Shown here: piece by piece, positions 222 to 44,599 of the stretch
Layout of the letters: the number at the start of each line of letters is the position of its first letter
Numbering within the stretch: the first letter of the stretch is position 1
IMG/VR virus record: IMGVR_UViG_2671180676_000003
Reading direction: 5' to 3' (one strand)
DNA length: 45,001 nucleotides
Origin: a virus
Taxonomy: Duplodnaviria > Heunggongvirae > Uroviricota > Caudoviricetes
Translations under genes and position numbers: made by a program
Notes under the pieces: generated by a model
Database searches by the model: none
Seen by the model: only the letters and a program-made list of their open reading frames with translations
What the model was told of the DNA's origin: nothing

Positions 222-713
222 CCCAGCGTCCTGACAGAATCCTCGAAAAACAACGAGCATACTGCCACCTGGGTTGATGTTTACTTCTACCTGACCCAGA
301 TTGACGTCAGGCTCGACAAACGCTACGCGGCCACCAGACAGAATAATCGTCTCATTCGCACACTCTGTTGCACGCTCATACCACTTTGTATCTAGGGATT
401 GAGGAATTAGCATCACTGTTGTAACTCCGCGAGCCTGCTCACGTATAGCCGCATCAATCCAGGGGGAGATTTTGGAGTAGGGTGGATTGAGGAAGGCAAT
501 TGTACCTGGCTGTCCCCATTCAGATTTCAAAGCATCACGCTCAACGCCTATGAAATTAGGCAGCTTTGCATTGTCCTTGTTGCAGGCAACGTCAACATCA
601 AATGTCACTCCAAGATAACGTTGAATGGCAGAAAACAGCCAGTCAGGTGTTCTCCAGAGGTCACGAAGAGAGTTGTCGCGCTTTCGCTGTTTGATTTTTT
701 CGGCTGCAATCAT
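219..713 (-). CDS. Phage-type DNA N6-adenine methyltransferase, 3' end truncated by the IS3-family insertion
   Basis: 164 aa with NPPY catalytic motif (FLNPPYSK). The stop codon TGA (rc of 219-221) is supplied by the last bases of the IS terminal repeat, so the native C-terminus is missing. Confidence 0.65.
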   Translation of the reverse strand: MIAAEKIKQRKRDNSLRDLWRTPDWLFSAIQRYLGVTFDVDVACNKDNAKLPNFIGVERDALKSEWGQPGTIAFLNPPYSKISPWIDAAIREQARGVTTVMLIPQSLDTKWYERATECANETIILSGGRVAFVEPDVNLGQVEVNINPGGSMLVVFRGFCQDAG

Positions 714-780
714 CTTCTTTCTCGATAGGTAAGTAAATACCTATTTTTGCATTTGATTTTATGTCTGGCAATCAAATAAA

Positions 781-828
781 ACGCGCCAGAAATGCAAACG
801 AGAAGCTCTCTGGCGCGTTTTTGTGGTG
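781..828. terminator. Putative bidirectional intrinsic terminator hairpin
   Basis: CGCGCCAGA...TCTGGCGCG stem followed by TTTTT on the plus strand and a T-rich run on the complement; lies between two minus-strand genes. Confidence 0.4.
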
Positions 829-896
829 CTGGGTATGTGATTGGCTTACCCAGCACTATAAAGCTCTCTATGGGCTTTATTTTCAGTAGGGGAACG

Positions 897-1706
897 TCAT
901 CCAATAGTGTACTCCGCGACAAACTTCTTAACGATCGGTGATTCTTCGTTCAATGTTAGATTTCCACCGTCTCTAACGGCAATTCCTGTCGCTGGAAATA
1001 CAGCCATCATTTGCCCAGCCTGAGTTGACGCAGTGTTAAGCGGATACGGTTTTTCTGGATTGCTCATTAAAGCAATCTTAATACTATTACTTGTAGCCTT
1101 CTTTTCTGTGAGAAGGTGTCTCATGGAAATTACCGTGTAAACACTAATATCTGGACCTCCGCTAAACCAATTAAGAAGGTTTAATATCTTATCCTTTGCT
1201 TTGACAGGCGCGTTATCGTAAGCGTCTAAAAAAATATCTTTCTCTAAACCCGCTTTATTGAAAAACGCATCATCTTTATCACTTAGAGCAAAACGAGGAC
1301 CTCTTGCAGTACGCGCTTTTTTATTTGTGTTGCTATCATTTGACTGTTGAACTTTTAATTCATCATTAATCTCAACACACCCTTCAACCTCGATGATCCC
1401 CAACTGTTCTGGTTCGTTTTCGGCAGCTTCACCACTTTCAGCGTTAATTACGTTTATAGGCTCATGCGCTAACTCCAACTCATTTAAAGCTGAGCTGAAA
1501 TCACCTGCTTTTTCTTCATTGAACAGTTCTTCGGCAACATCATCAGAACTCATGGCTACGCCAGCATCTAGGCCGAGCAGCAGATCGTCAATATCATCAG
1601 TATTTTCAACCTGTGCAGCTTTTTTTACTGGTTCATCAAGTGATTGCAACATGGCTGCCAGCTCGTCCAGATCATCATTTGTCATTACATTTTCAACCGA
1701 ACTCAT
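897..1706 (-). CDS. Hypothetical protein with highly acidic N-terminal half
   Basis: 269 aa ORF; N-terminal region rich in D/E. No motif recognised. Confidence 0.5.
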   Translation of the reverse strand: MSSVENVMTNDDLDELAAMLQSLDEPVKKAAQVENTDDIDDLLLGLDAGVAMSSDDVAEELFNEEKAGDFSSALNELELAHEPINVINAESGEAAENEPEQLGIIEVEGCVEINDELKVQQSNDSNTNKKARTARGPRFALSDKDDAFFNKAGLEKDIFLDAYDNAPVKAKDKILNLLNWFSGGPDISVYTVISMRHLLTEKKATSNSIKIALMSNPEKPYPLNTASTQAGQMMAVFPATGIAVRDGGNLTLNEESPIVKKFVAEYTIG

Positions 1707-1864
1707 GTAAGTCTCCTTCTGTTTGGTTACATTTGCGTTTCGATGGCTACATTTTGACTAAACCTATCAGGCGGAAAAGTATTAAATACAGGCAGGAAAT
1801 GATTGAAAGGCGACTGTTCTTTAAAAGAAAGCCTACTTTAAACTTTTTAAAGTAGGCTTTTGTT

Positions 1865-2422
1865 TTACACAATTTCAGAGGGTAATTTAAAAAATCCGTA
1901 CTTATTACGTGCCTTAAAGAAGCATTGCATCATTAAGTTTGTGTCATATAAGGCACTATGTGCTTTGGCATGATCGTATATAAAGCCAAGAGAGAAGGCC
2001 AACTCTTCAAGGCGGGGACGTTTACCGTCTTCTGTGGCCCACAATCCCGATAACATAGTATCTATAACAGGAACTTCTGGCAGTCTTACTCCATACCCTG
2101 AAAACTCGTGTCGAATAAATGGTATATCAAATGCTTCGCCGTTATGAGCAACCCACACACTACATGCCCCCATATAAGCGCCAATTTCGCTGGCATGATT
2201 TGACAACAAAGGTTCAGCTGCGAGCTGTTCCAATGAAATGCCATGAACGGCTTGAGCTTTCGGATCTATGTTTCTGCGAGGGTTAAAACGCATCTCCAGA
2301 CTATCAATATGTCTCTGTGTCTCCAGTTCATAGCGGGTAATTGCGATTTCAATAATTTTATGACCAGCAAGGAAATCCAGTCCCGTAGACTCGATATCGA
2401 TGCCTGCAACAATCGTTGTCAT
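1865..2422 (-). CDS. DnaQ-like (DEDDh) 3'-5' exonuclease
   Basis: Exo motifs visible: GIDIESTGL (Exo I), HNGEAFDIPF (Exo II), HSALYD (Exo III). AAGGAG Shine-Dalgarno 6 nt upstream of ATG. Confidence 0.75.
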   Translation of the reverse strand: MTTIVAGIDIESTGLDFLAGHKIIEIAITRYELETQRHIDSLEMRFNPRRNIDPKAQAVHGISLEQLAAEPLLSNHASEIGAYMGACSVWVAHNGEAFDIPFIRHEFSGYGVRLPEVPVIDTMLSGLWATEDGKRPRLEELAFSLGFIYDHAKAHSALYDTNLMMQCFFKARNKYGFFKLPSEIV

Positions 2423-2431
2423 CAGAACTCC

Positions 2432-2851
2432 TTACAACTTCTTAGCGCCCTTAAGTAGTGCGCTACGTACAAATTGAGCCGCTTTTTTCAAAGTTTCTTC
2501 ACTGGTTTCACAGACAATCGGATCTTTCCACTTACCTGACACAGTGTTGAGAATATTGATTTGGTTGCTATCCAGACAAACAGAGATATAAAGCACCGTG
2601 CCACCAGCCAGCATCAAATGCATAGGAAACAGAGGCTTTTTACTGCCTTCACTGAACTGAGACATGGCGATGTTAATGGCTTCACCCACTTGTGTACCAA
2701 CAAGCCCCTGCGCAGTTTCGAATATGGCACGAATAGCCAGACGAGCCTCTCGATCGCTCATAAGCGACCGGGAATGTTCGTCCGCTACACGAATCAAAGC
2801 CTCTGTTGTTTTCCGATCCAGTTCATCTTCAAGCAACATTTCACTAAACAT
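2432..2851 (-). CDS. Hypothetical protein
   Basis: 139 aa ORF in operon context; no recognisable motif. Confidence 0.5.
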   Translation of the reverse strand: MFSEMLLEDELDRKTTEALIRVADEHSRSLMSDREARLAIRAIFETAQGLVGTQVGEAINIAMSQFSEGSKKPLFPMHLMLAGGTVLYISVCLDSNQINILNTVSGKWKDPIVCETSEETLKKAAQFVRSALLKGAKKL

Positions 2852-2912
2852 TTTTTATCCTTAACCCATTTTGAGAGTTTTATTGTCGCAATGTCGAAGA
2901 GGCGAACAATTT

Positions 2913-3557
2913 CTAATGAACGGTCACTCGGCCACAGAACCGGTTTTCTATCTTTTCTACAGCGTTATCTAGCATTCTCATCACTGATCTGGCTCTTGCT
3001 TCAACCGTGCGATATCGGTTGGAAACGACGAAGGTTTGCAGATCTCCCCTTTGCGGATGCAGGTGAATTTTTGTCAGTTCCCCGCACATCAACGCATCAA
3101 TACGAGCGACATACAGACGGTCTAATGATGCTCGTTGTGATCGCAAGTAATCTCGCTCTGAGAGAGCGACTCCCGGGCGTAAGCCAGCAATGGCGTTAAA
3201 GTTTGAAATAGCAGTTTTGTGGCAAAACTTTTCGATATCGAGGGCTAACTCAATACACCGATCTTCATTTGTATGGCCGACCAAATCCAACGTGTAGGCC
3301 ATAACATCAGCAGGTGTGCGATCGATAACAAAGCCTTCAACACCACGCGTAAGTAGCTCTATATGCTTTGCTATTTCCATTTGAATCTGAAGCCGCTCAT
3401 ATAGAGGCATAGAATCACCTACTCGAACACCGAGGCGGCTCATCAAACTTCCGACACCAGCATCCACGTAAGGGATTCCGTAATGTTTGTCGATATATTT
3501 AGCCAGGGTTGTTTTCCCACTGCCCTGAGCACCAGTGATCCCAATCCGGTAATCCAT
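2913..3557 (-). CDS. P-loop nucleoside/deoxynucleotide monophosphate kinase-like protein
   Basis: N-terminal Walker A (GITGAQGSGKTT); size and position beside DHFR/ThyA are consistent with a phage dNMP kinase. Stop/start overlaps the DHFR gene. Confidence 0.55.
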   Translation of the reverse strand: MDYRIGITGAQGSGKTTLAKYIDKHYGIPYVDAGVGSLMSRLGVRVGDSMPLYERLQIQMEIAKHIELLTRGVEGFVIDRTPADVMAYTLDLVGHTNEDRCIELALDIEKFCHKTAISNFNAIAGLRPGVALSERDYLRSQRASLDRLYVARIDALMCGELTKIHLHPQRGDLQTFVVSNRYRTVEARARSVMRMLDNAVEKIENRFCGRVTVH

Positions 3558-4033
3558 TACGACCTTCTGTATACGATCTGCGAAAAGCCAGGCTCTTCCT
3601 CGCTGGCTCGTTGGGTATAAGCTGTTTCAACAGGCACAAAGCCTAAATTACGCATCATGCTTGCCGGGAAGAATGCATCGGCGTTTGGCACATCAACGCC
3701 GATGTGGGAGAGCCAAATCTCTTCAACATGCGGCATGAATAGCGAGTAAATTTGTTCCCCGCCAATCACCCACACAGGCTCTGGTAATCGCAACACATCA
3801 TCCACACCAGCAGGGTAGAATCCATTTGGTACAAAGCCATGAGAGCGCGTCAAAACGAGGTTATGACGCTCTGGAAGAGGGCGTTTGAGACTTTCCATCG
3901 TTTTACGCCCCATAACGACAGTGGCGTTTTTGGTGAGTCTCTTAAATAGCTTCAGATCGGTAGAACAACGCCAGGGGAGTTCATTCGCTATGCCGATCTC
4001 ATAGTTACGGCCAACAGCAGCGATCATCTTCAT
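3557..4033 (-). CDS. frd: Dihydrofolate reductase
   Basis: 158 aa; alignable by eye to E. coli FolA (MIAAVGRN.., LPW, VVMGRKTMESLKRPLPERHNLVLTRS, VWVIGGEQIY). Confidence 0.85.
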   Translation of the reverse strand: MKMIAAVGRNYEIGIANELPWRCSTDLKLFKRLTKNATVVMGRKTMESLKRPLPERHNLVLTRSHGFVPNGFYPAGVDDVLRLPEPVWVIGGEQIYSLFMPHVEEIWLSHIGVDVPNADAFFPASMMRNLGFVPVETAYTQRASEEEPGFSQIVYRRS

Positions 4034-4443
4034 TTGCTCACCTCATAGATGACCGGTCGATGGTGAGAGTCGGCTAAAGCGGCACGGAGTCGAGGATCGT
4101 GCACCAGCGCAGCGATAAGCAGATCGCCTTTATGCTCCGCTAATGTGCGCTTAATATGCTTCTCATAACTGGTGCCATTCGGTACGAGATGAAGCCAGTC
4201 ATAATCAACGCCAAAATCTTTCAGCCATCGTTTAGTTGGCGCTTCAAGAGTTTCAGAGCGGCTACTGATAAGCACCACTTCAGCCCCTGAGCGAGCAAAA
4301 CCACGCAACATACGGCTGGTGGGGAAAATGAGTTCATCACCGGCAATGAGCTGGCCTGCATCCGCGTCAGATACTGATTTACGATGGCTGGCATTTGCCA
4401 GCACACCTTCAATTTCGCATAAGACATACATACCTCTTGCCAT
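4030..4443 (-). CDS. Hypothetical protein, possibly HAD-like hydrolase fold with E-x-E in place of the D-x-D nucleophile motif
   Basis: ORF 4030-4491; I place the start at the ATG at 4443 just after the thyA stop. Motif VLCEIEGVL resembles HAD motif I but with Glu instead of Asp. Assignment is weak. Confidence 0.35.
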   Translation of the reverse strand: MARGMYVLCEIEGVLANASHRKSVSDADAGQLIAGDELIFPTSRMLRGFARSGAEVVLISSRSETLEAPTKRWLKDFGVDYDWLHLVPNGTSYEKHIKRTLAEHKGDLLIAALVHDPRLRAALADSHHRPVIYEVSK

Positions 4444-4444
4444 A

Positions 4445-5548
4445 TCACACCGCCACTGGAACCTTGATCCACGATAGAGGGTCATAGCCAAGAATTAAAA
4501 CCTCGTCCCATTTGAAATCATCCAACTCTGACCATTCATGAGGGAAAATAACGACCGGATCTGAATGCTCTGGAGCCTGTCGTTTCATTAGCTCACACAC
4601 ACCTTCCATGTGGTTGTTGTACAAATGCACGTCAAAGCCAAAATGCACAAATGCACCGGCCATGTGACCCGTAATCTTCGCGAGAAAATGAGTGAGAATG
4701 CCATAGCCAGCAATATTGAATGGCATACCAACAAAAGTGTCTACGCTACGCTGTACGAGGCAGGAGTTGAGGATGCGTTTGGGGATTCCAAGTTCATCCA
4801 GTTCAGCTTCAGTAACACTGCCGTCCATCTCCAGATCGTATAGCATCTTGGTGTAGATAGACTCGTAACCGAGGCGACTGTGTTGAAGACCAATGTCAGT
4901 TGCCATCGTTAAACGGGTTTCAAAATCCAGCTCACGACTCCACAAAGAGAAGACAAAGTGGCAAGGTGGCAGTTTCATATCCTCAAGCTCGCCTACGTTC
5001 CATGCGTTAAGCATGATGCGACGATCGGTAGGGTTCGTGCGCAGTGTATCGACAATACGCTGTAGCTGATCGATTTCACGGGACAGCACTACGCGATCTT
5101 CACTGATACCCAGGTATCCCTCGACTTTGTACCCGCGTTCACGGAAAGTAGCGATCTTGCTCAGATATTCACTATGGCTCACGATGCGGGTATCTTCCCA
5201 TCGACGCCACTGCTTACCGTAAACCGGCCCCAAATCGCCATTCTCATCGGCCCATGCATCCCAAATCTTAACGCCGTTATCCTTGAGAAATTGGATGTTG
5301 CCCGTGCCTTTCAGATACCACTCAAGTTCGACAAGCAGTGGCTTAAGATTTACCGCCTTTCCAGAAATAAGCGGCACAGTCCCACCAGTAAGCATGTAGT
5401 AAGAGGGAACGTAGCAGGTGCTTAAAGTACCAGTGCCTGTGCGATCATCAGCCTGCACGCCGCTTTTAAGCACCGTCTCAATAACTTTTGCATACGATGC
5501 GTTTGTTACCTGACCGTTCGTATGCTCACGATTCAAAAGGAGTGACAC
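4445..5548 (-). CDS. thyA: Thymidylate synthase (ThyA family) with two internal insertions
   Basis: DRTGTGT, WADENGDLGPVYGKQWR, LPPCH, MPFNIAGY motifs. The annotated ORF begins at GTG 5575 directly after a stop. I favour the in-frame GTG at 5548 preceded by GAGG, but the start is uncertain (5536-5575). Confidence 0.85.
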   Translation of the reverse strand: MSLLLNREHTNGQVTNASYAKVIETVLKSGVQADDRTGTGTLSTCYVPSYYMLTGGTVPLISGKAVNLKPLLVELEWYLKGTGNIQFLKDNGVKIWDAWADENGDLGPVYGKQWRRWEDTRIVSHSEYLSKIATFRERGYKVEGYLGISEDRVVLSREIDQLQRIVDTLRTNPTDRRIMLNAWNVGELEDMKLPPCHFVFSLWSRELDFETRLTMATDIGLQHSRLGYESIYTKMLYDLEMDGSVTEAELDELGIPKRILNSCLVQRSVDTFVGMPFNIAGYGILTHFLAKITGHMAGAFVHFGFDVHLYNNHMEGVCELMKRQAPEHSDPVVIFPHEWSELDDFKWDEVLILGYDPLSWIKVPVAV

Positions 5549-5719
5549 AAAAACCTCACAAAGATAAGTAACCACTTATTCATTACGTGAGTTTACATTT
5601 ATTGAGAGAACAAGGCCAGATAGATAAAAAAATGGTGGCCATAGGCCACCAAAAACGAATAGTTGTTTCAGGAATTTAACGCGCCAATACAATATACATA
5701 GATAGATAACTACCTACAA

Positions 5720-6589
5720 TTATTTTTTGATCATTCCGTACATTGCTGAGGCTTTAGCTTGCTCAACAAAGGAGGATAAATCGACATCACTATAGGTTGG
5801 AGACTTCAGAATCTTTCCATCGGAAATTCGAAAACCGATCATCTTATCGGTACCATCAGCATGGCGAAATCCCAGGTCTGAAGAGTCGTATTTGCAGTTG
5901 GCCACAGCCTGGCGACGTTCCTCTACATCAGCAGGCCATAATTTTGTCATGTTAGACCGATGAATTTCGCCAACCAGCTCGACTACATTGATACCGAGGA
6001 AATCAGCCAGTCGATAGGTCATCATGCACGCCACATAGATTTTGTTCATGACACGGCGCAGTTCCTGAATCAGCTCAGAATCCTTAACAGTCTTGTTCTC
6101 AAGTTTATCTGCCAGCTCTTCGAGCATACATGACGCCTCACGAGCTTCCTGAAATGGCATTGCCATATCATCGAAAACAGTGTTACCGGGCACAAAAATT
6201 GTCTGCATAAAGCGATCAATGCTCTGTTCCTGCGTGTAATAGGTCATGCCGGTAGAAATACCACCTTTGATGGCGACCATCGTACCAACACCAACGTATA
6301 AAAAGTCGGCCATTGCATCCAGCAGTTGCTCAATATCCCCATTCATTGCAGCTGGAATACCTTCCACTACAGCTTCTTCATGAATCAGGCTTGCACGGAG
6401 ACGAAGCAGCTCTGGTGTCGGCATAACGCGTCTCGGATGCTGGAAGAGTTCATGAAACTGATCGACCATCTTGTAAATACTTTCAGTGGCTACACCATGG
6501 CCTTCATGCAACTCATATGGTTCTGGCTTAAATCCAATGAGTCGATCGGTGGCAAGTTTCAGGTGGTCAGTCAGTTTGGTAAAGTTCAT
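5720..6589 (-). CDS. Hypothetical protein (possibly all-alpha nucleotide pyrophosphohydrolase-like)
   Basis: 289 aa; E-rich helical motifs (LIHEEAVVEG, DIEQLLDAMADF) and a nucleotide-metabolism neighbourhood. The functional guess is weak. Confidence 0.45.
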   Translation of the reverse strand: MNFTKLTDHLKLATDRLIGFKPEPYELHEGHGVATESIYKMVDQFHELFQHPRRVMPTPELLRLRASLIHEEAVVEGIPAAMNGDIEQLLDAMADFLYVGVGTMVAIKGGISTGMTYYTQEQSIDRFMQTIFVPGNTVFDDMAMPFQEAREASCMLEELADKLENKTVKDSELIQELRRVMNKIYVACMMTYRLADFLGINVVELVGEIHRSNMTKLWPADVEERRQAVANCKYDSSDLGFRHADGTDKMIGFRISDGKILKSPTYSDVDLSSFVEQAKASAMYGMIKK

Positions 6590-6666
6590 GCTAGTTTTGT
6601 TCCTTCTTAATTCTTGTGATCCATTGTGGCCCAGCGTTGCCAGGCCACATAATGCTTTGTATCGGT

Positions 6667-7809
6667 TTACAGGTCTGCAAACTGGCTTAGAGAAGCCTTA
6701 TCCACGGTAGAATCGATCTGACCTACCAGATATGTGCTTTGCTCTGCCTCTTGTGGTGCAATTTGCAGTGTGTCGGTTAACAACCACTTGTTCATCCAGA
6801 CCAGCGGATCAGTGGTAACTTCTGGAAATAAAGCCTTCAGGCCAAGACGATTCATAGCCAGATTGGTTCGGTATTTTACATAGGTCTTCAGAATATCCGC
6901 GTTTAAACCAATCATCGAACCGTCTTTGAAGAGATAGTCTGCCCAGTTCATTTCTTGTTCGGCGACTGATTTCATGGTGTCGTAAATGACGTTTTCTTCA
7001 TCAGCAGCAATCTCTTTCCACAATAAACCTTCGCGACCGGTACGCATGAAGCGGATCATGCGTTCAGTTCCTTCGCAATGCAGAGCTTCATCACGGGCAA
7101 TAAAGCGCATAATTTTGGTGTTACCCTCAAGCAACTTCCGTTCACCAAAGGCAAACGTACATGCAAAACTTACGTAGAAACGGATCGCCTCAAGCGCATT
7201 AATGGACACCAACGTGCGGAAAAGCTGACGATGCAAAGGGTATGGCTCCCAGCCATATTCATTTACGTACAGACGCTCAAATTCCTTCTCACCTAACGAC
7301 TGGCGCTCGCAGGTCATCCCATAAAGCCTGTCATATTCAGCAGAGATACTGATCGCTCGGTTGATGATTTCTTCATCCGTAACAATACCGTCAAAAACAA
7401 TGCTCGGATCGTCCACCATGCCACGAATAATGTGGGTGTAGCTGCGGCTATGGATAGTCTCAGAGAAAGACCACGTTTCAACCCACGTTTCCAGTTCAGG
7501 AATAGAGATAAGCGGCAGCAGCGTTGCATTTGGACTACGTCCCTGAACTGAATCGAGTAACGTTTGATAACGGAGATTGCTCAGAAAAATGTGACGTTCG
7601 TGGTCCCGCAGCTTCGTGTTGAAGTCGATACGATCGCTCGAAATATCAACTTCTTCCGGCCGCCAGAAGAAAGACAATTGACGTTCAATCAACTTTTCAA
7701 AATCACGGTATTTTTGCTGATCGTAACGTGCCACGTTGACAGATTGTCCGAGGAACATAGGCTCTTTGGTTGCATCATTAGCACCCAAACGGAACGTTGA
7801 ATATGACAT
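6667..7809 (-). CDS. nrdB: Ribonucleoside-diphosphate reductase class Ia beta subunit
   Basis: MSYSTF...[39 protein letters not shown] closely parallels E. coli NrdB. Start chosen at the ATG at 7809 with AAGGA upstream, not the longer ORF start at 7845. Confidence 0.9.
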
Positions 7810-7914
7810 GTGTTTTTCCTTTTGCTTTTTGATGTGTTTAAACAAGTTGTTATCTTATTTGTTTAAACAAGGCTTACAAATCAAAGAGAAGGTGGGGATA
7901 CACCCCACCATATG

Positions 7915-10230
7915 TCAGATTTTGCAGGCTCCGTCGCACTCATCTTCTGGCTCGACGGCTACAGCTTGCGCCAGTGGATTCTGCGGTTCGTCGTCATCAC
8001 GCTTTCCTGCCCCATCTCTGGTGTTGTGGTAGTAAAGCGTTTTAACTCCCATCTTGTAGGCGAGAAGCAAATCTGACAGTAGCGTCATCATTGGGACTTT
8101 ATCGCCTTCAAAGCGAGAAGGGTCATAGTTGGTATTGGCTGAAATAGCCTGGTCAAAGAACTTCTGGATGATCGCCACCTTTGTCAGATAGCCGCGGTTG
8201 TCCGGCATATCCCACAGGTATTCATACTGTTCCTTCAGTTTTTCAAACTCAGGCACGACCATCTTAACGATGCCGTCCTTAGAAGATTTCACCGACACCG
8301 GGCCACGAGGCGGTTCGATGCCGTTGGTGGAATTAGTGATCTGGCTGGAAGTCTCGCATGGCATTTGTGCCGTCAGTGTGGAGTTGCGAAGGCCGTATTT
8401 TGCAATACGTTCACGCAGTTCTTCCCACGGCATCTTTAACTCAAAGTTGGTTTCGCCACTTTCGTCTAATGAAGAACGGTAATGGTCGATCGGCAACTGA
8501 CCAATTGCGTACTTGGTCTGCTCAAACCAGTCACACTCACCTTTTGCTTCAGCAAGTCGGCAGCTGGCATCAAGAAGGTAATACTGGATAGCTTCGAATG
8601 TTTCATGCACCAGTTTATTGCCAGCGGTATCAGAATAACGAACGCCATTCTTTGCCAGGTAATAAGCAAAGTTGGTTACACCAATTCCCAAGCTACGACG
8701 AGCTTTGGCAGGCACTTCGGCTGCCTCCATCGGATAGTCTTGATAATCCAGTAACGAATCCAGTGCAGCAACGGCATAGAACGCCACCTCTTTAAGAGAC
8801 TCCAGTGAACGGATGGCTCCGAGGTTAAAAGCGGATAAAGTGCATAGCGCGATCTCACCGTTCGGGTCGTCGGTAAATGCCAGTGGACGGGTGGGTAGGG
8901 TGATCTCCATACACAGGTTTGACTGGCGAACAGGTGCAAGAGCAGGAATGAAAGCGCCATGCTCATTAATATGATCGACGTTCGCAATATAAATTCGGCC
9001 CGTGGACGCTCGTTCCTGCATCAGAGATGAGAACAGCTCAATGGCAGGTACTGACTTCTTGCGAATTGAATCATCGGCTTCGTATTTATGGTACAGCTTT
9101 TCAAACAGCTCCTGGTCTGTGAAGAAGGCTTCGTACATATCAGGCACATCATGCGGGCTGAACAGAGTGATGTTCTCGCTTCTGACGAGTCGACGGTACA
9201 TTAGACGGTTACTCATGACGCCGTAATCAAGATGGCGAACGCGGTTTTCATCAATACCACGGTTATTTTTCACCACCAGCAGACTTTCAACTTCAAGATG
9301 CCAGATCGGGTAAAACGCTGTTGCTGCGCCACCACGAACACCACCTTGCGAACAAGATTTAACAGCCGTCTGGAAATGCTTCAGGAATGGAATAACTCCA
9401 GTATGGGTGGCTTCACCATTGCGGATCTCGCTGCCCAGCGCACGGATACGGCCAAAACCAATACCAATTCCAGCACGACGTGAAACGTAGTCGATAATTG
9501 CGGCTGAAGCTGCACTAATCCCTTTCAGACTATCGCCAGACTCAATCAGCACACAACTGGAGAACTGACGGGTTGGAGTACGGACGCCGGCCATGATTGG
9601 TGTGGGCAGAGACAGTTTGAACGTACTTGTAACGTCATAGAAACCTTTGACCATCTCCATACGTGTTTTGCCAGCGCAGTCGTCTTCCCAATTCTGGAAC
9701 AGACACATGCCTACCAGCATATAGATATGTTGCGGTCCCTCATGAATCTCACCAGTAACACGGTTTTGAACGAGGTATTTGCTTTGCAACTGCACCGTAG
9801 CTGCATAGCCAAAAAGATCGTCACGTTTCGGCTTAATGTAATTGCCGAGTTCTTCGATCTCTTCAAACGAATAATGTGTCAGCAAATCCTTGTCATAAAC
9901 GCCCTTGTTAACGTTCTTGACAATGTGTTGGTAGAAGTTCGGATAGTCGTAACGACCGAAGGCATCTTTGCGGATTTTAAAAATGTTCAGGCGGGCAGCC
10001 ACCTGTGAGTAATTTGGTGCTTCTGGTGAGATCAAATCAGCGGCAGATTTAACCAAAGCCTCATGCAACTGGCTGGTGGTCATCCCATCAAAAATGCTGG
10101 CCGCAGCTCCCATTGCTACAGCGGATGCGCTTACACCACGAATGCCTTCTACGCCATACATTACGACGCGGTTGTATTTTTCTTCGGATAACGGCTCTGT
10201 TTGGCCGTTACGTTTTACGATGCTTATCAT
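7915..10230 (-). CDS. nrdA: Ribonucleoside-diphosphate reductase class Ia alpha subunit
   Basis: 771 aa, collinear with E. coli NrdA across the whole length (e.g. YLVQNRVTGEI, SLPTPIMAGVRTPTRQFSSCVLIE, FQTAVKSCSQGGVRGGAAT, PCETSSQI, C-terminal CxxxxCKI). Confidence 0.95.
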   Translation of the reverse strand: MISIVKRNGQTEPLSEEKYNRVVMYGVEGIRGVSASAVAMGAAASIFDGMTTSQLHEALVKSAADLISPEAPNYSQVAARLNIFKIRKDAFGRYDYPNFYQHIVKNVNKGVYDKDLLTHYSFEEIEELGNYIKPKRDDLFGYAATVQLQSKYLVQNRVTGEIHEGPQHIYMLVGMCLFQNWEDDCAGKTRMEMVKGFYDVTSTFKLSLPTPIMAGVRTPTRQFSSCVLIESGDSLKGISAASAAIIDYVSRRAGIGIGFGRIRALGSEIRNGEATHTGVIPFLKHFQTAVKSCSQGGVRGGAATAFYPIWHLEVESLLVVKNNRGIDENRVRHLDYGVMSNRLMYRRLVRSENITLFSPHDVPDMYEAFFTDQELFEKLYHKYEADDSIRKKSVPAIELFSSLMQERASTGRIYIANVDHINEHGAFIPALAPVRQSNLCMEITLPTRPLAFTDDPNGEIALCTLSAFNLGAIRSLESLKEVAFYAVAALDSLLDYQDYPMEAAEVPAKARRSLGIGVTNFAYYLAKNGVRYSDTAGNKLVHETFEAIQYYLLDASCRLAEAKGECDWFEQTKYAIGQLPIDHYRSSLDESGETNFELKMPWEELRERIAKYGLRNSTLTAQMPCETSSQITNSTNGIEPPRGPVSVKSSKDGIVKMVVPEFEKLKEQYEYLWDMPDNRGYLTKVAIIQKFFDQAISANTNYDPSRFEGDKVPMMTLLSDLLLAYKMGVKTLYYHNTRDGAGKRDDDEPQNPLAQAVAVEPEDECDGACKI

Positions 10231-18519: not shown

Positions 18520-18795
18520 TCACTCAAAAGTGCTGATGCTTAAAATACGCTCAAGATGTTCAGCATCTTCATTACTGATTTGTTGAGTCTCTTCTACGTA
18601 CCAACAGTTGCCGTTATGCCAACAAACACCATCATCATCAACCATCACTGAATCAGCGTCATGACCTGTATATTCAACAAGAGTACGCTGGATCAGCGCG
18701 TCAGTTTCTTCATCGTTAAGGCCATCGACTTTGACCATAAAAAGCGGAAACACGTCATAGACAGTGCTGGTAACGATTCGAACTAAAACTCTCAT
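18520..18795 (-). CDS. Hypothetical acidic protein
   Basis: 91 aa ORF. Confidence 0.45.
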   Translation of the reverse strand: MRVLVRIVTSTVYDVFPLFMVKVDGLNDEETDALIQRTLVEYTGHDADSVMVDDDGVCWHNGNCWYVEETQQISNEDAEHLERILSISTFE

Positions 18796-18850
18796 GTGTT
18801 TTTCCTTTTGTGGTTAGTGTTTACTTATTTTGTTAGTTATGAATAGGCGA

Positions 18851-19276
18851 TCAATCTTCTTGGTTAGGGAAAAACTGTTCAATAACTCTGTCAACGGCTG
18901 TGTCTATATGGAGTAGATGCCACACAACCATATCTTTGCTTCCCATGCCTTGTGTGAATATCACGTCATACTTACGCCATGCGCAGTGGAACCAATATGC
19001 TGAGTCATCAATTGGTAAATCCTCTCCCGCCTCTTTGAAGTATTTCAGCAGCATTGCCTGCTCTGCCGTTGGCGTTGGACCTATTTCCTGAGCGTACATA
19101 CGGATGAATCGCTGCCAGTCTGTCTCGTCGGGGGTTGGATCTGGTGGGGGCATTTCTGCGATAGCGTTTCGTAGCTGATGCGCCCAATCAGGTTCAGGAA
19201 AGCCTTTTGCTACTTCATCATCAATAACATCCAGAGCCACGTTTGCGGCATCGTAGAGTTTCTTAATAACTGTCAT
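18851..19276 (-). CDS. Hypothetical protein
   Basis: 141 aa ORF. Confidence 0.5.
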   Translation of the reverse strand: MTVIKKLYDAANVALDVIDDEVAKGFPEPDWAHQLRNAIAEMPPPDPTPDETDWQRFIRMYAQEIGPTPTAEQAMLLKYFKEAGEDLPIDDSAYWFHCAWRKYDVIFTQGMGSKDMVVWHLLHIDTAVDRVIEQFFPNQED

Positions 19277-19323
19277 GTTTTCTTATCCTTTTAAACAAAT
19301 TGTTTTCTTAATAAGATAATTGC

Positions 19324-19350
19324 GATAAAAAAGGCGTCCAACTGGACGCC
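19324..19350 (-). terminator. Intrinsic terminator
   Basis: GGCGTCC-AACT-GGACGCC hairpin followed on the minus strand by TTTTTTATC, just 3' of the SPFH gene. Confidence 0.5.
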
Positions 19351-19367
19351 TGAACTTTTTAGGGGAG

Positions 19368-20198
19368 TTATTTCACTGTAATGAAAGGAGTGTTAGCCCC
19401 TTGAGTCATGTACTGCGGTAACTGGCCATTCCATTTATTGATGGCTTCCAGCTCCATAACGTTCGGGTTTTGACGCAGAGCTTCACCGCGCAGACGAATG
19501 GCGTCGGCTTCTGCTTGCGCACGAGCACGGATAGCATCAGCTTCACCATTAGCCTGTTCACGTAGCATATTCGCCTCAGCTTTACGCTGTTCAACTTCCT
19601 GCTGACGTTGCAGAGTACGCTGGTTAGCCGTTACTTTGGCGTTGATAGATTCAATGACGGTTTTTGGGTAATCAGGCTTTCCAACCCATGACAGGCTCAG
19701 TACCTCAATACCAACCGGAGACATCTCTTTCTGAATATCTTTCAGTGCGTTGTCCAGCAATTGCGCCTTACCACCGTCGATAAATGAGTCAGTGGTCATA
19801 CGGCTGGCCAAACGGTTTAGAGAGTCGGCAATTTTCTGACGCAGATCTGATTCGGTGATATCGTCTACGCCTTTGCGATAGGTCTGGAACACCGTCGTTA
19901 CCTTGTCACGATTAACCAGATACGCAACGCCAATTTTGTGACCAATAGCAGTACCGTCACTCATCTGGAATGTGAACGGCTCGTCGTAGGTCTTCATTTG
20001 TTTGAAGGTCGGGAATACGTAAAGTTCGGTGTTAAGACCTGTCCATTGGCGACCAACGCCAACCACTTCACCGATCCCTTTGTCTTCACCTAATTTGTTT
20101 ACTTTGATGCCAACGTATCCAGGCTCCACGCGATCACAGCCAGTAAGACCCATTGTGCAAATAGCCGCCAGAGCAACTGCAAGTAAACCTTTCTTCAT
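19368..20198 (-). CDS. SPFH/band-7 (prohibitin/HflKC-like) domain lipoprotein
   Basis: Signal peptide with lipobox (LTGC); band-7-like core and a C-terminal coiled coil rich in AEA/RAQ repeats. Confidence 0.7.
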   Translation of the reverse strand: MKKGLLAVALAAICTMGLTGCDRVEPGYVGIKVNKLGEDKGIGEVVGVGRQWTGLNTELYVFPTFKQMKTYDEPFTFQMSDGTAIGHKIGVAYLVNRDKVTTVFQTYRKGVDDITESDLRQKIADSLNRLASRMTTDSFIDGGKAQLLDNALKDIQKEMSPVGIEVLSLSWVGKPDYPKTVIESINAKVTANQRTLQRQQEVEQRKAEANMLREQANGEADAIRARAQAEADAIRLRGEALRQNPNVMELEAINKWNGQLPQYMTQGANTPFITVK

Positions 20199-24547: not shown

Positions 24548-25546
24548 TTGAGAATAAAACCAATGGATAAGGCTAACAAACAAGTCAAAGCAACAAAGTC
24601 AGTGCCGACTAAAAAAACAGCCCTCCCCCCAAAAGCTAAGTCTGTAAAGCCAGCGGCAGAAAAGAATAAAACTGAAGGTATGACATATCCGAAAACCAGT
24701 GCGGATGGACACGCTGGAGAGTACTTGTTTGCCTATTGGATTTCTCGTTATTTCAGATGGCCTTGTCGATTGCTAGATATTGATATGGGATTGGATGCTC
24801 AGGTTGAAATATATGAAAATAATCTTTCGACAGGTTTTTTTATCGGCGTTCAGATAAAAACCACCTCACGCAAAATGAAGAGAAGGTTAAGCGTACAAAT
24901 ACCTTATAAAAATATAACCTATTGGGGAAGTTGTGATTTTCCTGTGGTAATTGTTTTGATATGCCTACACGATGATAATGAATTAGACGAACCTGCTATT
25001 TATTGGAAGCATTTAGATAAAAAAACAATTTCTAAAATAAAGGATAAAGCATTAAGAAGTGACTCTGGATGTGCTCCTGTAACTTTCAATAAGGATGATT
25101 ATCTGTCTGAATGGGCAGACAAACCAAAGTGGGTCGACATGTGGCTTACAGAAGAAGATAAAGAGATAATTGAGCTTGCAAAGCGAGTAAACAAGACGTT
25201 GCTAGAGATAGGTGTTCCTCTTGATAAATTCGGAGACGAGTATGACCGCAGCACCTACCTGTGTAGCCCTGAGCGGGTAGTACCAGACTTGAACTCTATG
25301 ATGAATGAATATGAAAAAATAAATAACCATATACGTGTAAAGCGTCGATTAGTAGAATTCGATCCTGTAGTGTCGATTTGTTCACAAAATTATGAAAAGT
25401 ATCTACCTAAAATCCTTGAATATTTTGAAGATGTGGTCGCACGTAGTGTCGGTTCATACTCGATTGCAGAACATTTCGAACCATACAGTGATCGTAATCA
25501 TATTCTGAATCGAATAATTATAGAGAAAGCCCCTAATTCAAGATAG
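24548..25546 (+). CDS. Hypothetical protein with Lys-rich N-terminal tail and PD-(D/E)xK-like nuclease core
   Basis: Plus-strand gene in a minus-strand block, AT-rich. Motif GEYLFAYWISRYFRWPCRLLDIDMGLDAQVEIYEN...FIGVQIKTT fits a D..D/E..E.K restriction-endonuclease-like pattern. Start is TTG 24548 or ATG 24563. Confidence 0.5.
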   Translation: MRIKPMDKANKQVKATKSVPTKKTALPPKAKSVKPAAEKNKTEGMTYPKTSADGHAGEYLFAYWISRYFRWPCRLLDIDMGLDAQVEIYENNLSTGFFIGVQIKTTSRKMKRRLSVQIPYKNITYWGSCDFPVVIVLICLHDDNELDEPAIYWKHLDKKTISKIKDKALRSDSGCAPVTFNKDDYLSEWADKPKWVDMWLTEEDKEIIELAKRVNKTLLEIGVPLDKFGDEYDRSTYLCSPERVVPDLNSMMNEYEKINNHIRVKRRLVEFDPVVSICSQNYEKYLPKILEYFEDVVARSVGSYSIAEHFEPYSDRNHILNRIIIEKAPNSR

Positions 25547-35502: not shown

Positions 35503-35651
35503 ATTGAGTCCTTTCAAGTGAGTATCCGAAAGAACTATACAGTTAACGTGCGTAAAAAGTAAGTGCTTACCTATCATTTATTGATAGAAGAATAGCCGCC
35601 TGTCGTGTGATACTATTTACAGAACTAAACTGGCTTTCCACAAGGTGTAAA

Positions 35652-36473
35652 ATGACTATCCTTGAAAATCCTGATGCGAATGTTGAATCTGTTTATAGTC
35701 TTCATCCAACCACGTTGTTTCATTTTACAAAAAACGAAGATGCTTTCTATAGCATATTGGCTGAGAAATATTTTAAACCATTTCTTGCTCGCGAGGAAAT
35801 AAGAGGAGTCGGGGGACGTAGGAGGTTTGCAGTACCAATGGTATCGTTTTGTGACATAAAACTATCACAAATCAGAGATCATAGCGGAAAATATGGAGAA
35901 TTCGGTCTTGGGCTAACTAAGTCTTGGGCGGAAAAGAAAGGTCTACACCCAGTTCTATATATGAATAAGAGTAGTGAAATATTTTCTAAATACAATGCCA
36001 GAATTCGACTTATTAAAAATAAGTTGGTGCCGCTTTGGAAGGCTAGAGGAAATTTAGATACCAAAAACAGAATAGAGTTTGAGAAATTGAAAGCAGAATA
36101 CTCTGATCTATATAATTTACTGCGTTATATGAAAAATTACAGAGGCAAGCTAGAGCGAAAAGATAATAAAACAATAGAGAATTATATATATGCAGACGAG
36201 AAAGAGTGGCGTTATGTGCCAGCTCCTTTTATTGGTGATTTATGGCCTAGTCTGAGTTTGGAGCGTGTTATCACTTCTGATGACAAAGCAAAAATTAGCT
36301 CAGAATTTTCAAAGTTTGGCATTGATTTTGAGTTCAATGATATAAAATATATACTTATACCTAAAGAACAACATATCCAAAAGCTAATTAACTTTCTCTC
36401 AGGTTTAGATGGATTTGAATCTTCAATTATTAGCAAAATTCTGACCATGGATAAAGTAAAGCAAGATTTTTAA
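35652..36473 (+). CDS. Hypothetical protein, gene A of AT-rich two-gene cassette (candidate defence/abortive-infection component)
   Basis: 273 aa from ATG 35652 (AAGGTG Shine-Dalgarno; the track start GTG 35607 is less likely). About 33-35% GC by hand count against roughly 45-50% for backbone genes. Conserved-looking N-terminal block LHPTTLFHFTK...AVPMVSFCD...GEFGLG. Confidence 0.6.
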   Translation: MTILENPDANVESVYSLHPTTLFHFTKNEDAFYSILAEKYFKPFLAREEIRGVGGRRRFAVPMVSFCDIKLSQIRDHSGKYGEFGLGLTKSWAEKKGLHPVLYMNKSSEIFSKYNARIRLIKNKLVPLWKARGNLDTKNRIEFEKLKAEYSDLYNLLRYMKNYRGKLERKDNKTIENYIYADEKEWRYVPAPFIGDLWPSLSLERVITSDDKAKISSEFSKFGIDFEFNDIKYILIPKEQHIQKLINFLSGLDGFESSIISKILTMDKVKQDF

Positions 36474-36499
36474 TTTTTGGTTTAACGGGAGCCTAATTA

Positions 36500-37711
36500 G
36501 TGTCAATATTTTTAAGCGAAAAGGAAATGCAAAATTGGATAATTGACAAATTATCTGATCAAGATGGATTATATAATTCAATCATCAATATTGATAAATT
36601 AAACGAATTTAATCCGAAAAGACCCGAAGAGAAAAAAATTAAGGAGAGTTATCAGTTTTGTTTAAAGAACATAACATTGTTACATTTAATGACAGATGAT
36701 GAGAATATCTCAGCAACAAAATCTGAGATATTAAGACCTGATGTTGTTGCTTATTCAACAGAGAATGAATCCTTAGTTCTTATTGAGTTAAAAAACTTTT
36801 CAACACCAACAAGGGAAGCTGGAACTGAGTTGGTGGCATATGCTGCGGAACTAAAAAGTTACTTGTCATACTTGTCTGATGGAGATATTACCAATGTACT
36901 TATATCACCTGACTGGCCACCCCTGGTTAGACACTTTATTTTTAATATGATCGTGTGGCAGAAGAAAAACTTTCTATGTTTAGAACCTTGCTATGATTTA
37001 CAAGGTAACGTATCACTTACTCCTTTAGATATTAATAAATTAGTTATTGCGGAAGAAGCACTCAAGTTCTCATTTCGTCATCTTGGTGGGTTTCATATAT
37101 GTTTGTATGATGATGAAATGTATAATAAACCGACTTCAACTTCTCGTTTACATTCGAAATTGAATGTTATTAAAGCCAGCATGGCAAAAATGTCCTCAGA
37201 CGGTGAAAAGACTAATAGCCATGGGTTTGCTATTTTATGTAGAAATTTGAATGAGAGAACTTTAGCGCCATATACGATTACTCTAGTTAATGTTTCTGCG
37301 TTTTCTTCCATAGAGCGATACTTTCATTCGCCACAAATATCCAATGCTTCTCAACTCCCTAGAATAGGACAAAAAATTTATGACATTTACACTCATTACC
37401 AACCATCAGGTTTTGGGGCATCAATGTCGAAAATTTACAATTCTGGGAAGGCATATTTAGAAAAAATTAATTGCAAGCCGCGGATCGAGGTTATAGACAC
37501 CTGGGATGTATTGCAAGCACATACACATGCGCCTTATATGGAAATGGTTCATATTGAAACGTGGGGAGTTTTTAAAGAAAAATTGATTGAAGGTCTAAAT
37601 GAATGTTATGAGGATGAATATTACACACCTGATTTTGACGATGTAGATTTTTGCATGGTGTGTATTGAATCCTTAATTGACCAGAATTATGAATTTATAA
37701 AACTTTTTTGA
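36500..37711 (+). CDS. Hypothetical protein with N-terminal PD-(D/E)xK nuclease motif, gene B of AT-rich two-gene cassette
   Basis: 403 aa; GTG start 26 nt after the gene A stop, with GGGAG Shine-Dalgarno; motif ILRPDVVAY...ESLVLIELKNF fits PD...(D/E)xK; same AT-rich composition as gene A. Confidence 0.6.
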   Translation: MSIFLSEKEMQNWIIDKLSDQDGLYNSIINIDKLNEFNPKRPEEKKIKESYQFCLKNITLLHLMTDDENISATKSEILRPDVVAYSTENESLVLIELKNFSTPTREAGTELVAYAAELKSYLSYLSDGDITNVLISPDWPPLVRHFIFNMIVWQKKNFLCLEPCYDLQGNVSLTPLDINKLVIAEEALKFSFRHLGGFHICLYDDEMYNKPTSTSRLHSKLNVIKASMAKMSSDGEKTNSHGFAILCRNLNERTLAPYTITLVNVSAFSSIERYFHSPQISNASQLPRIGQKIYDIYTHYQPSGFGASMSKIYNSGKAYLEKINCKPRIEVIDTWDVLQAHTHAPYMEMVHIETWGVFKEKLIEGLNECYEDEYYTPDFDDVDFCMVCIESLIDQNYEFIKLF

Positions 37712-37713
37712 AG

Positions 37714-37745
37714 AAAAGGGGCCGAAGCCCCTTTGAATTTTGCGC
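37714..37745 (+). terminator. Intrinsic terminator closing the two-gene cassette
   Basis: AAAGGGGC-CGAA-GCCCCTTT hairpin followed by GAATTTT immediately after the gene B stop. Confidence 0.55.
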
Positions 37746-37888
37746 TGAAAAAAGTGTTGCTAGGATGTTAGCAAGCTATGGTTAAGAACGTCTGCCGTAA
37801 TTGTCTATCACAGCGTTGAGCGGTCTGGTTTATGTTAGCGGAGTCTTAATCGAGTTGATTAAAAGGCCAAACCGCTCAACGCTGTGTC

Positions 37889-37976
37889 TGGCGGAGAGTA
37901 ATGGAATCGAACCATCATCGCTTGCGCAATGGGACGGTTTTCAAGACCGCTTGAGCACCATGCTCCCTACTCTCCG
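37889..37976 (-). tRNA. tRNA-Ser (anticodon UGA), long variable arm
   Basis: Hand-folded: anticodon arm GCGGT-CTTGAAA-ACCGT, long variable arm, T-arm GATGG-TTCGATT-CCATT, encoded CCA. The D-arm fit is imperfect, so boundaries are approximate. Confidence 0.55.
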
Positions 37977-38199
37977 GCCGTTGTGGTGGCCGGTACTGAA
38001 TCTCCGGCATACGGTGCAGCCAATTAGGACTACGGACGATCACCGCTCGCGAAAGGGAAGATTTGCGGCCGCATTTCCCTAACATCCAAGAAAGCTATCG
38101 CATCAGTCTGCGAATCCACCACAACGGTAAGATCACTACCTTTCGACCAGTCATTGTGCACATGAACGACGATTAACCGTAATGATCTTATCGTTGTAT

Positions 38200-38275
38200 T
38201 GGTGCCGGTTAGCGGACTCGAACCGCTGACATCCTGCTTACAAGGCAGGCGCTCTACCAACTGAGCTAAACCGGC
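38200..38275 (-). tRNA. tRNA-Thr (anticodon UGU)
   Basis: Perfect cloverleaf by hand: acceptor GCCGGTT/AACCGGC, D-arm GCTC-AGTTGGTA-GAGC, anticodon arm CCTGC-CTTGTAA-GCAGG, T-arm AGCGG-TTCGAGT-CCGCT, encoded CCA. Confidence 0.9.
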
Positions 38276-38279
38276 AATT

Positions 38280-38366
38280 TGGTGGGGAGTGATGGAGTCG
38301 AACCACCCGAGTCGCAATGACAGTAGATTTACAGTCTACACCGCTACCTCTACGGACTAACTCCCC
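38280..38366 (-). tRNA. tRNA-Tyr (anticodon GUA), long variable arm
   Basis: Acceptor GGGGAGT/ACTCCCC, anticodon arm GTAGA-CTGTAAA-TCTAC, long variable arm, T-loop TTCGACT, encoded CCA. Confidence 0.8.
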
Positions 38367-38371
38367 TAAAT

Positions 38372-38446
38372 TGGCGATGGTGGGTGGATTCGAACCACCG
38401 ACCAGTTGGTTAACAGCCAACTGCTCTACCGCTGAGCTACACCATC
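38372..38446 (-). tRNA. tRNA-Asn (anticodon GUU)
   Basis: Acceptor GATGGTG/CACCATC, D-arm GCTC-AGCGGTA-GAGC, anticodon arm GTTGG-CTGTTAA-CCAAC, T-arm GGTGG-TTCGAAT-CCACC, encoded CCA. Confidence 0.9.
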
Positions 38447-43453: not shown

Positions 43454-44599
43454 ATGAAATACATAAAATCTTCATCGTTGCTGGCATTAACTTTGCTTTT
43501 TAGCTCTGGATTCGTTAACGCAGACAATAAACAAACGCTGATAGAAGCCGCTACCGCAGGGGATACCGCAGCACAAAGTGAGTTAGGGACAAATTATTTT
43601 GATGGTATCAATGGTTTTGATAAGGATGTAGTTGAGGCCAAGAAGTGGATTGATCTCGCTGCAGAAAAGGGAGACAAAGTAGCATATTATGCACTTGGGG
43701 TTATGTACACATTTGGCGAGGGTGTAGATAAAGACTTAAATAAAGCAGTTGAGTACTACAAACTTGCGGGAGATGCTCGTGAAGGTAGAGCCTATAACAA
43801 TCTTGGTGCTATTTATCAAAAGGGGATGCTTGGTAAAGTAGATCATGCGCTCGCCATTAAATACTTCAAACTAGCCTCTGATGCCGGGTATGTTAAAGCT
43901 AGCTACCTTCTTGGTGCGTATTACCAATATGGTAAAGGTGTACAAAAGAGTTATAAAAAAGCTTTTACTTATTACAAAAAAGCGGCGGATCAAGGTAGTT
44001 CAGATGGCATGTTCGCATTAGGCACCTTATACGATGACGGTTTAGGTGTTAAACGCAACGATGCCGAAGCAATTAAGTGGTATAAAAAAGCTGCTGAACT
44101 CGGAAACGCCGATGCCATGACAAATCTTGGCATTATGTATGAGTATGGTGAAGGGGTTAAAAAAGACTATAAAAAAGCAGCTGAGCTTTATCAGGCTGCT
44201 TGTGATAAAGAAGATAAAAATGGCTGTGATTACATTGCAGAACTGAAAGAAAGCGGCAAATATCGAGCGCCGGCTTCCAAAGCCAAAACAAAATCCGCCA
44301 CCCAGCGACTTATTGCTAAATCCATTGATAAGGGCGTTAACGCTACATTTACCTGGCAGGGTGATGATGCTACCTTCACCGCTAATGATGGCAAAGTTGA
44401 CTGCACCTTTCTGAAGGATTTTTCAGAGAAAGGAGGCAATCTGGCTACCTCGTTTGTTTGCACCGACAACGTTCAAATCATCCTGAAGCAATTCAGAGAT
44501 ACCAAGAATGCCTACCTCGCAGTAATGACTGACAACTTCAATACAGAAGTTAAATCATTTTCGGTCAATGTGTATGTGACTAATACTGGTTCAAACTAG
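43454..44599 (+). CDS. Secreted Sel1-like repeat (SLR/TPR-like) protein with C-terminal domain of unknown function
   Basis: Signal peptide MKYIKSSSLLALTLLFSSGFVNA, then about six Sel1-type repeats (e.g. AxxWYKKAAELGNADAMTNLGIMYEYGEGV) and about 130 aa with no recognisable motif. The track's TTG start at 43409 is less likely. Confidence 0.7.
   Translation: MKYIKSSSLLALTLLFSSGFVNADNKQTLIEAATAGDTAAQSELGTNYFDGINGFDKDVVEAKKWIDLAAEKGDKVAYYALGVMYTFGEGVDKDLNKAVEYYKLAGDAREGRAYNNLGAIYQKGMLGKVDHALAIKYFKLASDAGYVKASYLLGAYYQYGKGVQKSYKKAFTYYKKAADQGSSDGMFALGTLYDDGLGVKRNDAEAIKWYKKAAELGNADAMTNLGIMYEYGEGVKKDYKKAAELYQAACDKEDKNGCDYIAELKESGKYRAPASKAKTKSATQRLIAKSIDKGVNATFTWQGDDATFTANDGKVDCTFLKDFSEKGGNLATSFVCTDNVQIILKQFRDTKNAYLAVMTDNFNTEVKSFSVNVYVTNTGSN

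Follow-up and report, generated by a model that had tools for sequence, protein, structure and literature searches.

Does a pair of tightly linked genes in a variable region of a phage-plasmid constitute one two-component defense system, or two modules that have come to lie side by side? The question is raised by positions 35607-37745 of IMG/VR virus record IMGVR_UViG_2671180676_000003 (a 45,001-nucleotide stretch of caudoviral DNA, hereafter the window), where two AT-rich plus-strand genes, here called A and B, sit in a minus-strand setting. A first-pass annotation made from the DNA alone had proposed this cassette as a candidate defense or abortive-infection (Abi) system and had likened it to a two-component Abi or toxin-effector pair. 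That analogy does not hold up well: each gene is normally solo, and the pair is confined to one nearly clonal lineage. We consider it somewhat more probable than otherwise that the cassette is a stack of two independent single-gene modules of defense type, an orphan AbiGi protein predicted to be an ADP-ribosyltransferase (ART) and a predicted stand-alone nuclease, which are probably co-transcribed in the cargo slot of a phage-plasmid. The parts of the cassette and its edges are as follows.

35652-36473, plus strand: gene A, 273 aa, with the ATG start given by RefSeq.
35607-36473, plus strand: open reading frame (ORF) of gene A, from the ORF call.
36500-37711, plus strand: gene B, 403 aa, with a GTG start.
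36474-36499, plus strand: intergenic spacer of 26 nt with the gene B ribosome-binding site GGGAG, read from the sequence.
35503-35651, plus strand: gene A upstream region, presumed promoter and 5' untranslated region, which travels with the AbiGi module (from alignment with a Klebsiella oxytoca plasmid).
37716-37745, no strand assigned: GC hairpin and T-tract, a backbone element that forms the right edge of the variable slot and closes the cassette.
35359-35502, minus strand: 144-nt remnant of a gp49-family gene, left edge of the insertion (from comparison with empty-slot plasmids).

Loci around relatives of each gene were taken from genomes, viral contigs and metagenomes and scanned with hidden Markov models (HMMs) of both families, and the co-occurrence counts required ≥1 kb of upstream sequence at gene B loci and ≥1.3 kb of downstream sequence at AbiGi loci. 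AbiGi lies beside gene B in 4 of 53 B loci, all of them copies of this Escherichia coli plasmid lineage, and is absent in the other 49 of 53. Conversely, gene B lies beside AbiGi in 3 of 62 AbiGi loci, belonging to the same lineage, and is absent in 59 of 62. The closest gene B relatives (~50% identity) stand at the end of 186-like prophages as their last gene, co-oriented with cI-int and with host genes beyond; they start 1-13 nt past the integrase stop, a position that suits expression in the lysogen. More distant relatives form solo islets, which in Actinobacillus follow uvrB, in Oceanicaulis adjoin an integrase and ArdA, and in Aureitalea lie near Schlafen-like and ImmA-like genes. Neighbor clustering across 58 gene B loci returned no conserved partner, only the integrase, CI and CII that are backbone in 186-like prophages. 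On the AbiGi side, a protein 71% identical to gene A is encoded solo on conjugative IncF plasmids; its gene lies in their leading region, with psiB, ParB and DUF905 nearby, and is convergent with the gene for the Avs4 anti-phage nuclease (e.g., pEQ011 4001-8819). Another, 65% identical, is encoded on an SSU5-type plasmid of K. oxytoca, where it occupies the same slot between the same upstream region and the same hairpin and gene B is missing. Neighbor clustering of 98 AbiGi loci likewise found no conserved partner, only prophage backbone genes in one subgroup.

These counts bear most directly on the possibility that A and B are a lineage-specific two-component Abi system, resembling AbiG with a nuclease in place of AbiGii, in which one protein senses or licenses and the other executes. 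We regard such a system as conceivable but unlikely. The layout speaks for it, since the two genes are co-oriented across a 26-nt gap, have no terminator between them, share their composition, and occur together in all 18-19 carriers; canonical AbiG is itself bicistronic, with AbiGi and a ~397-aa partner near gene B in size. Yet the co-occurrence is limited to one nearly clonal lineage, the Klebsiella AbiGi with the same upstream region stands alone in the same slot, gene B stands alone in ~50 loci across many phyla, and it has no detectable AbiGii homology. A minority of AbiGi relatives do have tightly abutting downstream ORFs of diverse families, which could reflect partner swapping, but these ORFs fall into many unrelated singletons without a Pfam family and form no recurrent family.

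The physical description of the cassette that the first pass had given was borne out in nearly every respect. The ORF calls and RefSeq agree on two linked plus-strand genes of the lengths and spacing reported; the gene A stop codon at 36471-36473 is followed by 26 nt to the gene B start, and each gene has a plausible Shine-Dalgarno site of its own (AAGGTG 5 nt before the gene A ATG, GGGAG 9 nt before the gene B GTG). The low GC content is also real. Gene A has 34.1% GC and 28.1% GC at third codon positions (GC3), and gene B has 33.4% and 28.2%, against 45.6% GC in the remaining window and a GC3 of ~50% in the integrase, glutaredoxin and ligase genes. The cassette is the lowest-GC 2139-nt segment in the whole 45 kb, ~3.7 standard deviations under the mean. 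Of the hairpin terminator thought to close the cassette, the hairpin itself is present at ~37716-37745 (GGGGCCGAAGCCCC then TTTGAATTTT), but it does not belong to the cassette. It is identical in the empty-slot plasmid and in the K. oxytoca plasmid with AbiGi alone, and is therefore a backbone feature and the right edge of the slot. A terminator scan of the region did not report it.

Sequence comparison places the window in an SSU5-group E. coli phage-plasmid: the region matches E. coli plasmid pUTAK-6-1 (111 kb, non-mobilizable) at 100% identity and shows synteny to Escherichia phage Cyrano, and its ligase shares 90.7% identity with that of Salmonella phage SSU5. The neighbors of the cassette, all on the minus strand, are a repressor/integrase, a glutaredoxin, four tRNAs (Ser, Thr, Tyr, Asn) and the ligase. 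The slot between the glutaredoxin gene and the tRNA cluster is variable among relatives. In phage Cyrano and pNT1F31 it is empty, with a full gp49-family gene, the hairpin and tRNA-Ser; in pIso00225_02 it holds two minus-strand genes, one of which matches the PADLOC models PDC-M68A, SduA and CBASS endonuclease effector; in pSTEC388_1 it holds a 429-aa protein without assigned function; and SSU5 lacks the entire integrase-glutaredoxin-cargo segment. The gp49-family gene (N4 Gp49 / Sf6 gene 66 family) measures 351 nt in the empty-slot plasmids and Cyrano and 144 nt in cassette carriers, and the acquisition therefore replaced part of it. From ~35485 on, the sequence does not align with the empty-slot plasmid, in which homology stops just past the glutaredoxin gene, and ~170 bp upstream of gene A align instead with the region upstream of the solo AbiGi in K. 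oxytoca. A promoter scan found no strong sigma-70 consensus upstream of gene A, and promoter-like matches within the AT-rich genes A and B were fewer than expected by chance. A repeat search found no direct or inverted repeats bounding the cassette that would mark an insertion mechanism. These comparisons with related elements show the cassette to be accessory cargo, acquired horizontally into a variable slot of the phage-plasmid, as the first-pass annotation had proposed from its position beside the glutaredoxin and the tRNA cluster.

The cassette is carried by 18 PLSDB plasmids, and the adjacent integrase-glutaredoxin backbone is present at ≥90% identity in ~206. Among 5426 complete E. coli genomes it occurs in 19, always on ~111 kb plasmids and always with both genes. 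The copies are 98.7-100% identical to one another with both ORFs intact, and their differences are mostly synonymous (5:2 in gene A, 12:4 in gene B, synonymous to nonsynonymous). Since all copies are at least 98.7% identical, they trace to one acquisition event, and their constant co-presence is thus no independent evidence for coupling.

This distribution also bears on whether one or both genes serve the biology of the phage-plasmid itself, the nuclease acting in recombination, host DNA degradation or anti-defense and the ART modifying host proteins. It is well established that phages have ARTs and PD-(D/E)xK nucleases that serve the phage itself, and T4 Alt, ModA and ModB are ARTs that modify host proteins. 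DNA-metabolism genes are numerous in the backbone here (ligase, RecA, exonuclease, primase, helicase, Pol III alpha and NrdAB), a setting in which such a role would be at home. We nevertheless find it doubtful. The cassette is absent from >90% of close backbones and from SSU5, so the life cycle can do without it; it departs from the backbone in both strand and composition; and the positions of gene B at the lysogeny end of 186-like prophages and of solo AbiGi by Avs4 in IncF plasmids are both typical of host-protective cargo.

Gene A had at first been left without a family. Pfam PF10899 (87.3 bits against a cut-off of 22.4, E 1.7e-24, profile positions 26-184 of 185), the PADLOC AbiGi model (positions 11-260 of 260, E 5e-47) and the existing RefSeq annotation all place it in AbiGi, and the first two matches substantiate the suspected membership in an abortive-infection family. 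Against NCBIfam NF042957, the equivalog model for lactococcal AbiGI, it scores 52.6 bits (E 4e-14) and does not reach the curated cut-off of 300, and it is ~30% identical to lactococcal AbiGI across 78% of its length. By these profile scores, gene A is a member of the AbiGi family and not an orthologue-level equivalent of lactococcal AbiGI. The blocks LFHFT, PMVSFCD and G..G, which had looked conserved by eye, are indeed invariant or nearly so among 37 AbiGi relatives. Strictly invariant in these relatives are H24 (in the strand at 21-26), S65, D68, Y81 and E183-x-E185 (at the start of the strand at 185-188). This array agrees with the motif pattern of ARTs, in which H or R on strand 1 is followed by an S/Y motif and by E or ExE on strand 5, although the role given to each residue in that scheme is our tentative assignment.

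In a 2025 survey (PMC12522546), AbiGi appears on the list of ART-like families already known, close to DarT and DUF2971. Because of this listing and the invariant residues, we treat gene A with moderate confidence as a probable active ADP-ribosyltransferase with a predicted DarT-like fold. The comparison with DarT, the toxin of DarTG and an ADP-ribosyltransferase of single-stranded DNA, also brings out differences: gene A has no sequence-level similarity to DarT, the Foldseek match is not significant, a long helical insert and an additional C-terminal domain set gene A apart, and there is no DarG-type macrodomain antitoxin near it. Single-sequence and profile searches found no sequence-level link between gene A and solved structures. 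For lactococcal AbiG, the phage major tail protein is reported as the trigger and effects on phage transcription and replication have been described (2026 review; PMC12184496); the same 2026 review still lists the mechanism of AbiG as unknown.

Both Pfam and RefSeq name AbiGi an antitoxin, which invites the reading of A and B as a toxin-antitoxin or addiction module that stabilizes the phage-plasmid, with B as the nuclease toxin and A as its antitoxin. This label lacks an experimental basis, because Dy et al. (2014) saw no toxicity from either gene of the lactococcal pair: abiGi and abiGii were each non-toxic when expressed singly in E. coli, which also tells against the module itself. The bicistronic layout would suit such a module, as would residence on a low-copy plasmid-prophage, where addiction modules are of benefit, and a YafO-type toxin-antitoxin pair occupies a neighboring variable slot in relatives. 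An obligate toxin-antidote pair, however, could not show the distribution seen here, with B lacking A at ~50 loci and A lacking B at ~60. The predicted fold of gene A is moreover enzyme-like, with conserved catalytic-type residues, and not antitoxin-like. We consider this explanation very improbable.

The nuclease motif noted at the N terminus of gene B survives alignment. Across 37 family members, with 32-52% identity to gene B, the core P80 D81 ... E96 x K98 is invariant, so that the D81/E96/K98 triad is not lost, and R105, G108-T109-E110, Y114 and D127/D129 are invariant as well. The PD-(D/E)xK core is present, with an alpha-beta-beta-beta-alpha-beta fold and the D ... (D/E)xK residues on strands 2 and 3, and the AlphaFold2 (AF2) model has a pLDDT (predicted local distance difference test) of 92.3. 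The protein consists of an N-terminal NucS/RecB-like PD-(D/E)xK domain at ~residues 60-165 and a C-terminal half (~220 aa) of ferredoxin-like alpha/beta modules, which in a fold search matched generic ferredoxin-like folds only. The N-terminal domain resembles the NucS fold and, more broadly, NucS/EndoMS and RecB-family PD-(D/E)xK nucleases, including the nuclease domains of FokI, N.BspD6I, Can2, McrC and the HsdR N terminus. Only ~100-120 residues of gene B align with these, at 11-18% identity, and unlike NucS it has no N-terminal DNA-binding domain of the NucS type, nor does it carry a helicase, methylase or CARF partner domain.

Gene B could be placed in no family of Pfam, NCBIfam or PADLOC, the sole trace being a sub-threshold HSDR_N_2 match. 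No model of PADLOC-DB v2.0.0 matched it at E values up to 1, and ten long or short relatives returned nothing relevant against PADLOC v2. It falls in PHROG 30092, which is without known function; single-sequence and profile searches found no sequence-level link to solved structures; and a literature search by protein accession and PHROG id found no match and no reported anti-phage phenotype. Homologues form 54 clusters at 90% identity and 453 representatives at 50% identity (E ≤1e-3) in Proteobacteria, Bacteroidota, Planctomycetota and others. Many relatives are 700-750 aa long, with the B-like module at the N terminus followed by a ~330-aa C-terminal extension in which no Pfam or PADLOC domain was found. 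The model and the conserved core point to an uncharacterized family on a known nuclease fold, predicted to act as a stand-alone nuclease. In its setting, gene B is akin to the single-gene defense nucleases of hotspots (e.g., P2/P4 hotspot cargo): members of its family are solo cargo after the integrase at prophage ends or form islets near integrases, ArdA or Schlafen-like genes, and its slot holds a Shedu-like nuclease in a sister plasmid. It differs from those nucleases in that neither gene B nor its long-form relatives match any PADLOC v2 model.

Compared with AbiG as a whole, gene A likewise opens a bicistron carried by a mobile element, is followed by a ~400-aa gene, and matches the AbiGi model over its full length. 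Unlike in AbiG, no AbiGii gene adjoins it, and gene B is unlike AbiGII. The identification of gene B as a divergent AbiGii was tried and rejected, as there was no PF16873 or PADLOC AbiGii match at E values up to 1, BLASTP against lactococcal AbiGII gave an E value of 0.12, and hhalign with a 5-sequence AbiGII alignment gave a probability of 0.06-0.09%. The AbiGII HMM had no match near any of the 98 AbiGi-like loci; the AbiGII family is tiny, with 6 clusters.

Under the reading of two stacked modules that we prefer, genes that are free-standing on mobile elements elsewhere would be co-transcribed here as slot cargo. Gene A would be an NAD+-dependent ADP-ribosyltransferase of the DarT-like kind, inactive until a phage cue arrives; it would then modify nucleic acid or protein and so block phage transcription or replication. 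Gene B would cut incoming DNA, its C-terminal half serving recognition or regulation. The two would shield the lysogen, and hence the phage-plasmid, from other phages, and would act neither as a toxin-antitoxin module nor as a sensor-effector pair. The enzymatic activities, targets and trigger of A and B in this scheme, and any anti-phage phenotype, are inferred.

Several points weigh against two independent modules. The 26-nt gap, the single downstream terminator and the equal composition (GC3 28%) fit joint acquisition and co-expression, and linkage this tight with identical composition therefore makes a functional link between A and B in this lineage possible; the single acquisition event to which the 98.7-100% identical copies point is neutral on such coupling. 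Neither gene has a known phenotype in E. coli, and solo prophage nucleases can have roles other than defense. For lactococcal AbiGi, a 2026 review reports no significant structural match. A further reading, which we hold to be speculative and rather improbable, is that gene B represents a widespread, undescribed family of single-gene anti-phage nucleases that temperate elements bring along and express in the lysogen, recruited here behind an AbiGi ART so that both would act on the same invading DNA (e.g., mark, then cut).

Other features of the element were recorded alongside the cassette.

37889-38446, minus strand: tRNA cluster, the set of which varies among relatives.
pUTAK-6-1 427-7100, 18707-19652 and 27621-29731 (window coordinates ~3127-3129 higher): dfrA51, thymidylate synthase, nrdAB and the frameshifted genes, from the record annotation.

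The tRNA set is Ser-Thr-Tyr-Asn in the window, Ser-Thr-Asn in Cyrano, Ser-Asn in K. oxytoca and Asn only in SSU5. Directly 3' of the minus-strand tRNA-Ser, at window positions 37809-37886, lies a 20-nt inverted repeat (95% complementary, 38-nt loop) that is kept in the empty-slot plasmid and the Klebsiella plasmid and is probably a terminator or processing hairpin of the tRNA cluster. The backbone annotation of pUTAK-6-1 includes dfrA51 (a phage-type dihydrofolate reductase, flagged as trimethoprim-resistant), thymidylate synthase and nrdAB, and its CobT-related gene and 5'-3' exonuclease gene are both annotated as frameshifted. The interval separating the integrase gene from the glutaredoxin gene (window 34906-35116) is another variable slot, empty in the window apart from a near-perfect palindrome with 16-nt arms at 35004-35036. 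In pEC16-2 and K. oxytoca this slot holds a YafO toxin and a 202-aa gene, in pLH09-a-C a 307-aa gene and in phage Cyrano a 184-aa gene. Elsewhere in the minus-strand backbone, a plus-strand gene at 24563-25546 in a low-GC stretch (~0.41), a DUF4365 protein according to RefSeq, has a weak PADLOC match to an Argonaute-associated restriction-endonuclease domain (E 1.6e-10) and may be a second cargo nuclease. A plus-strand tetratricopeptide-repeat protein encoded at 43454-44599, in another low-GC stretch (0.39), has a weak PtuA-like ATPase match (E 1.8e-5).

AbiG has been known since 1996, and gene A is a new member of a family already known and annotated; what has been under-appreciated is the solo state of these AbiGi genes and their predicted DarT-like fold. 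The pairing of A and B is hotspot cargo of a known type and opens no new category, and it illustrates that tight two-gene linkage in a hotspot is insufficient for calling a two-component system. Should A and B act on the same DNA, they would represent a new ART-plus-nuclease design of immunity and would give a first mechanistic handle on the AbiG family. Gene B adds an unannotated nuclease family, missed by PADLOC v2, to phage-plasmid hotspots and to the lysogeny ends of 186-like prophages. If AbiGi proteins are indeed DarT-like ARTs and for the most part lack an AbiGii partner, the name "antitoxin" in the databases misleads. Members of this family occur on E. coli, Klebsiella and Salmonella plasmids, and the ART reading would give them a concrete activity that can be tested.

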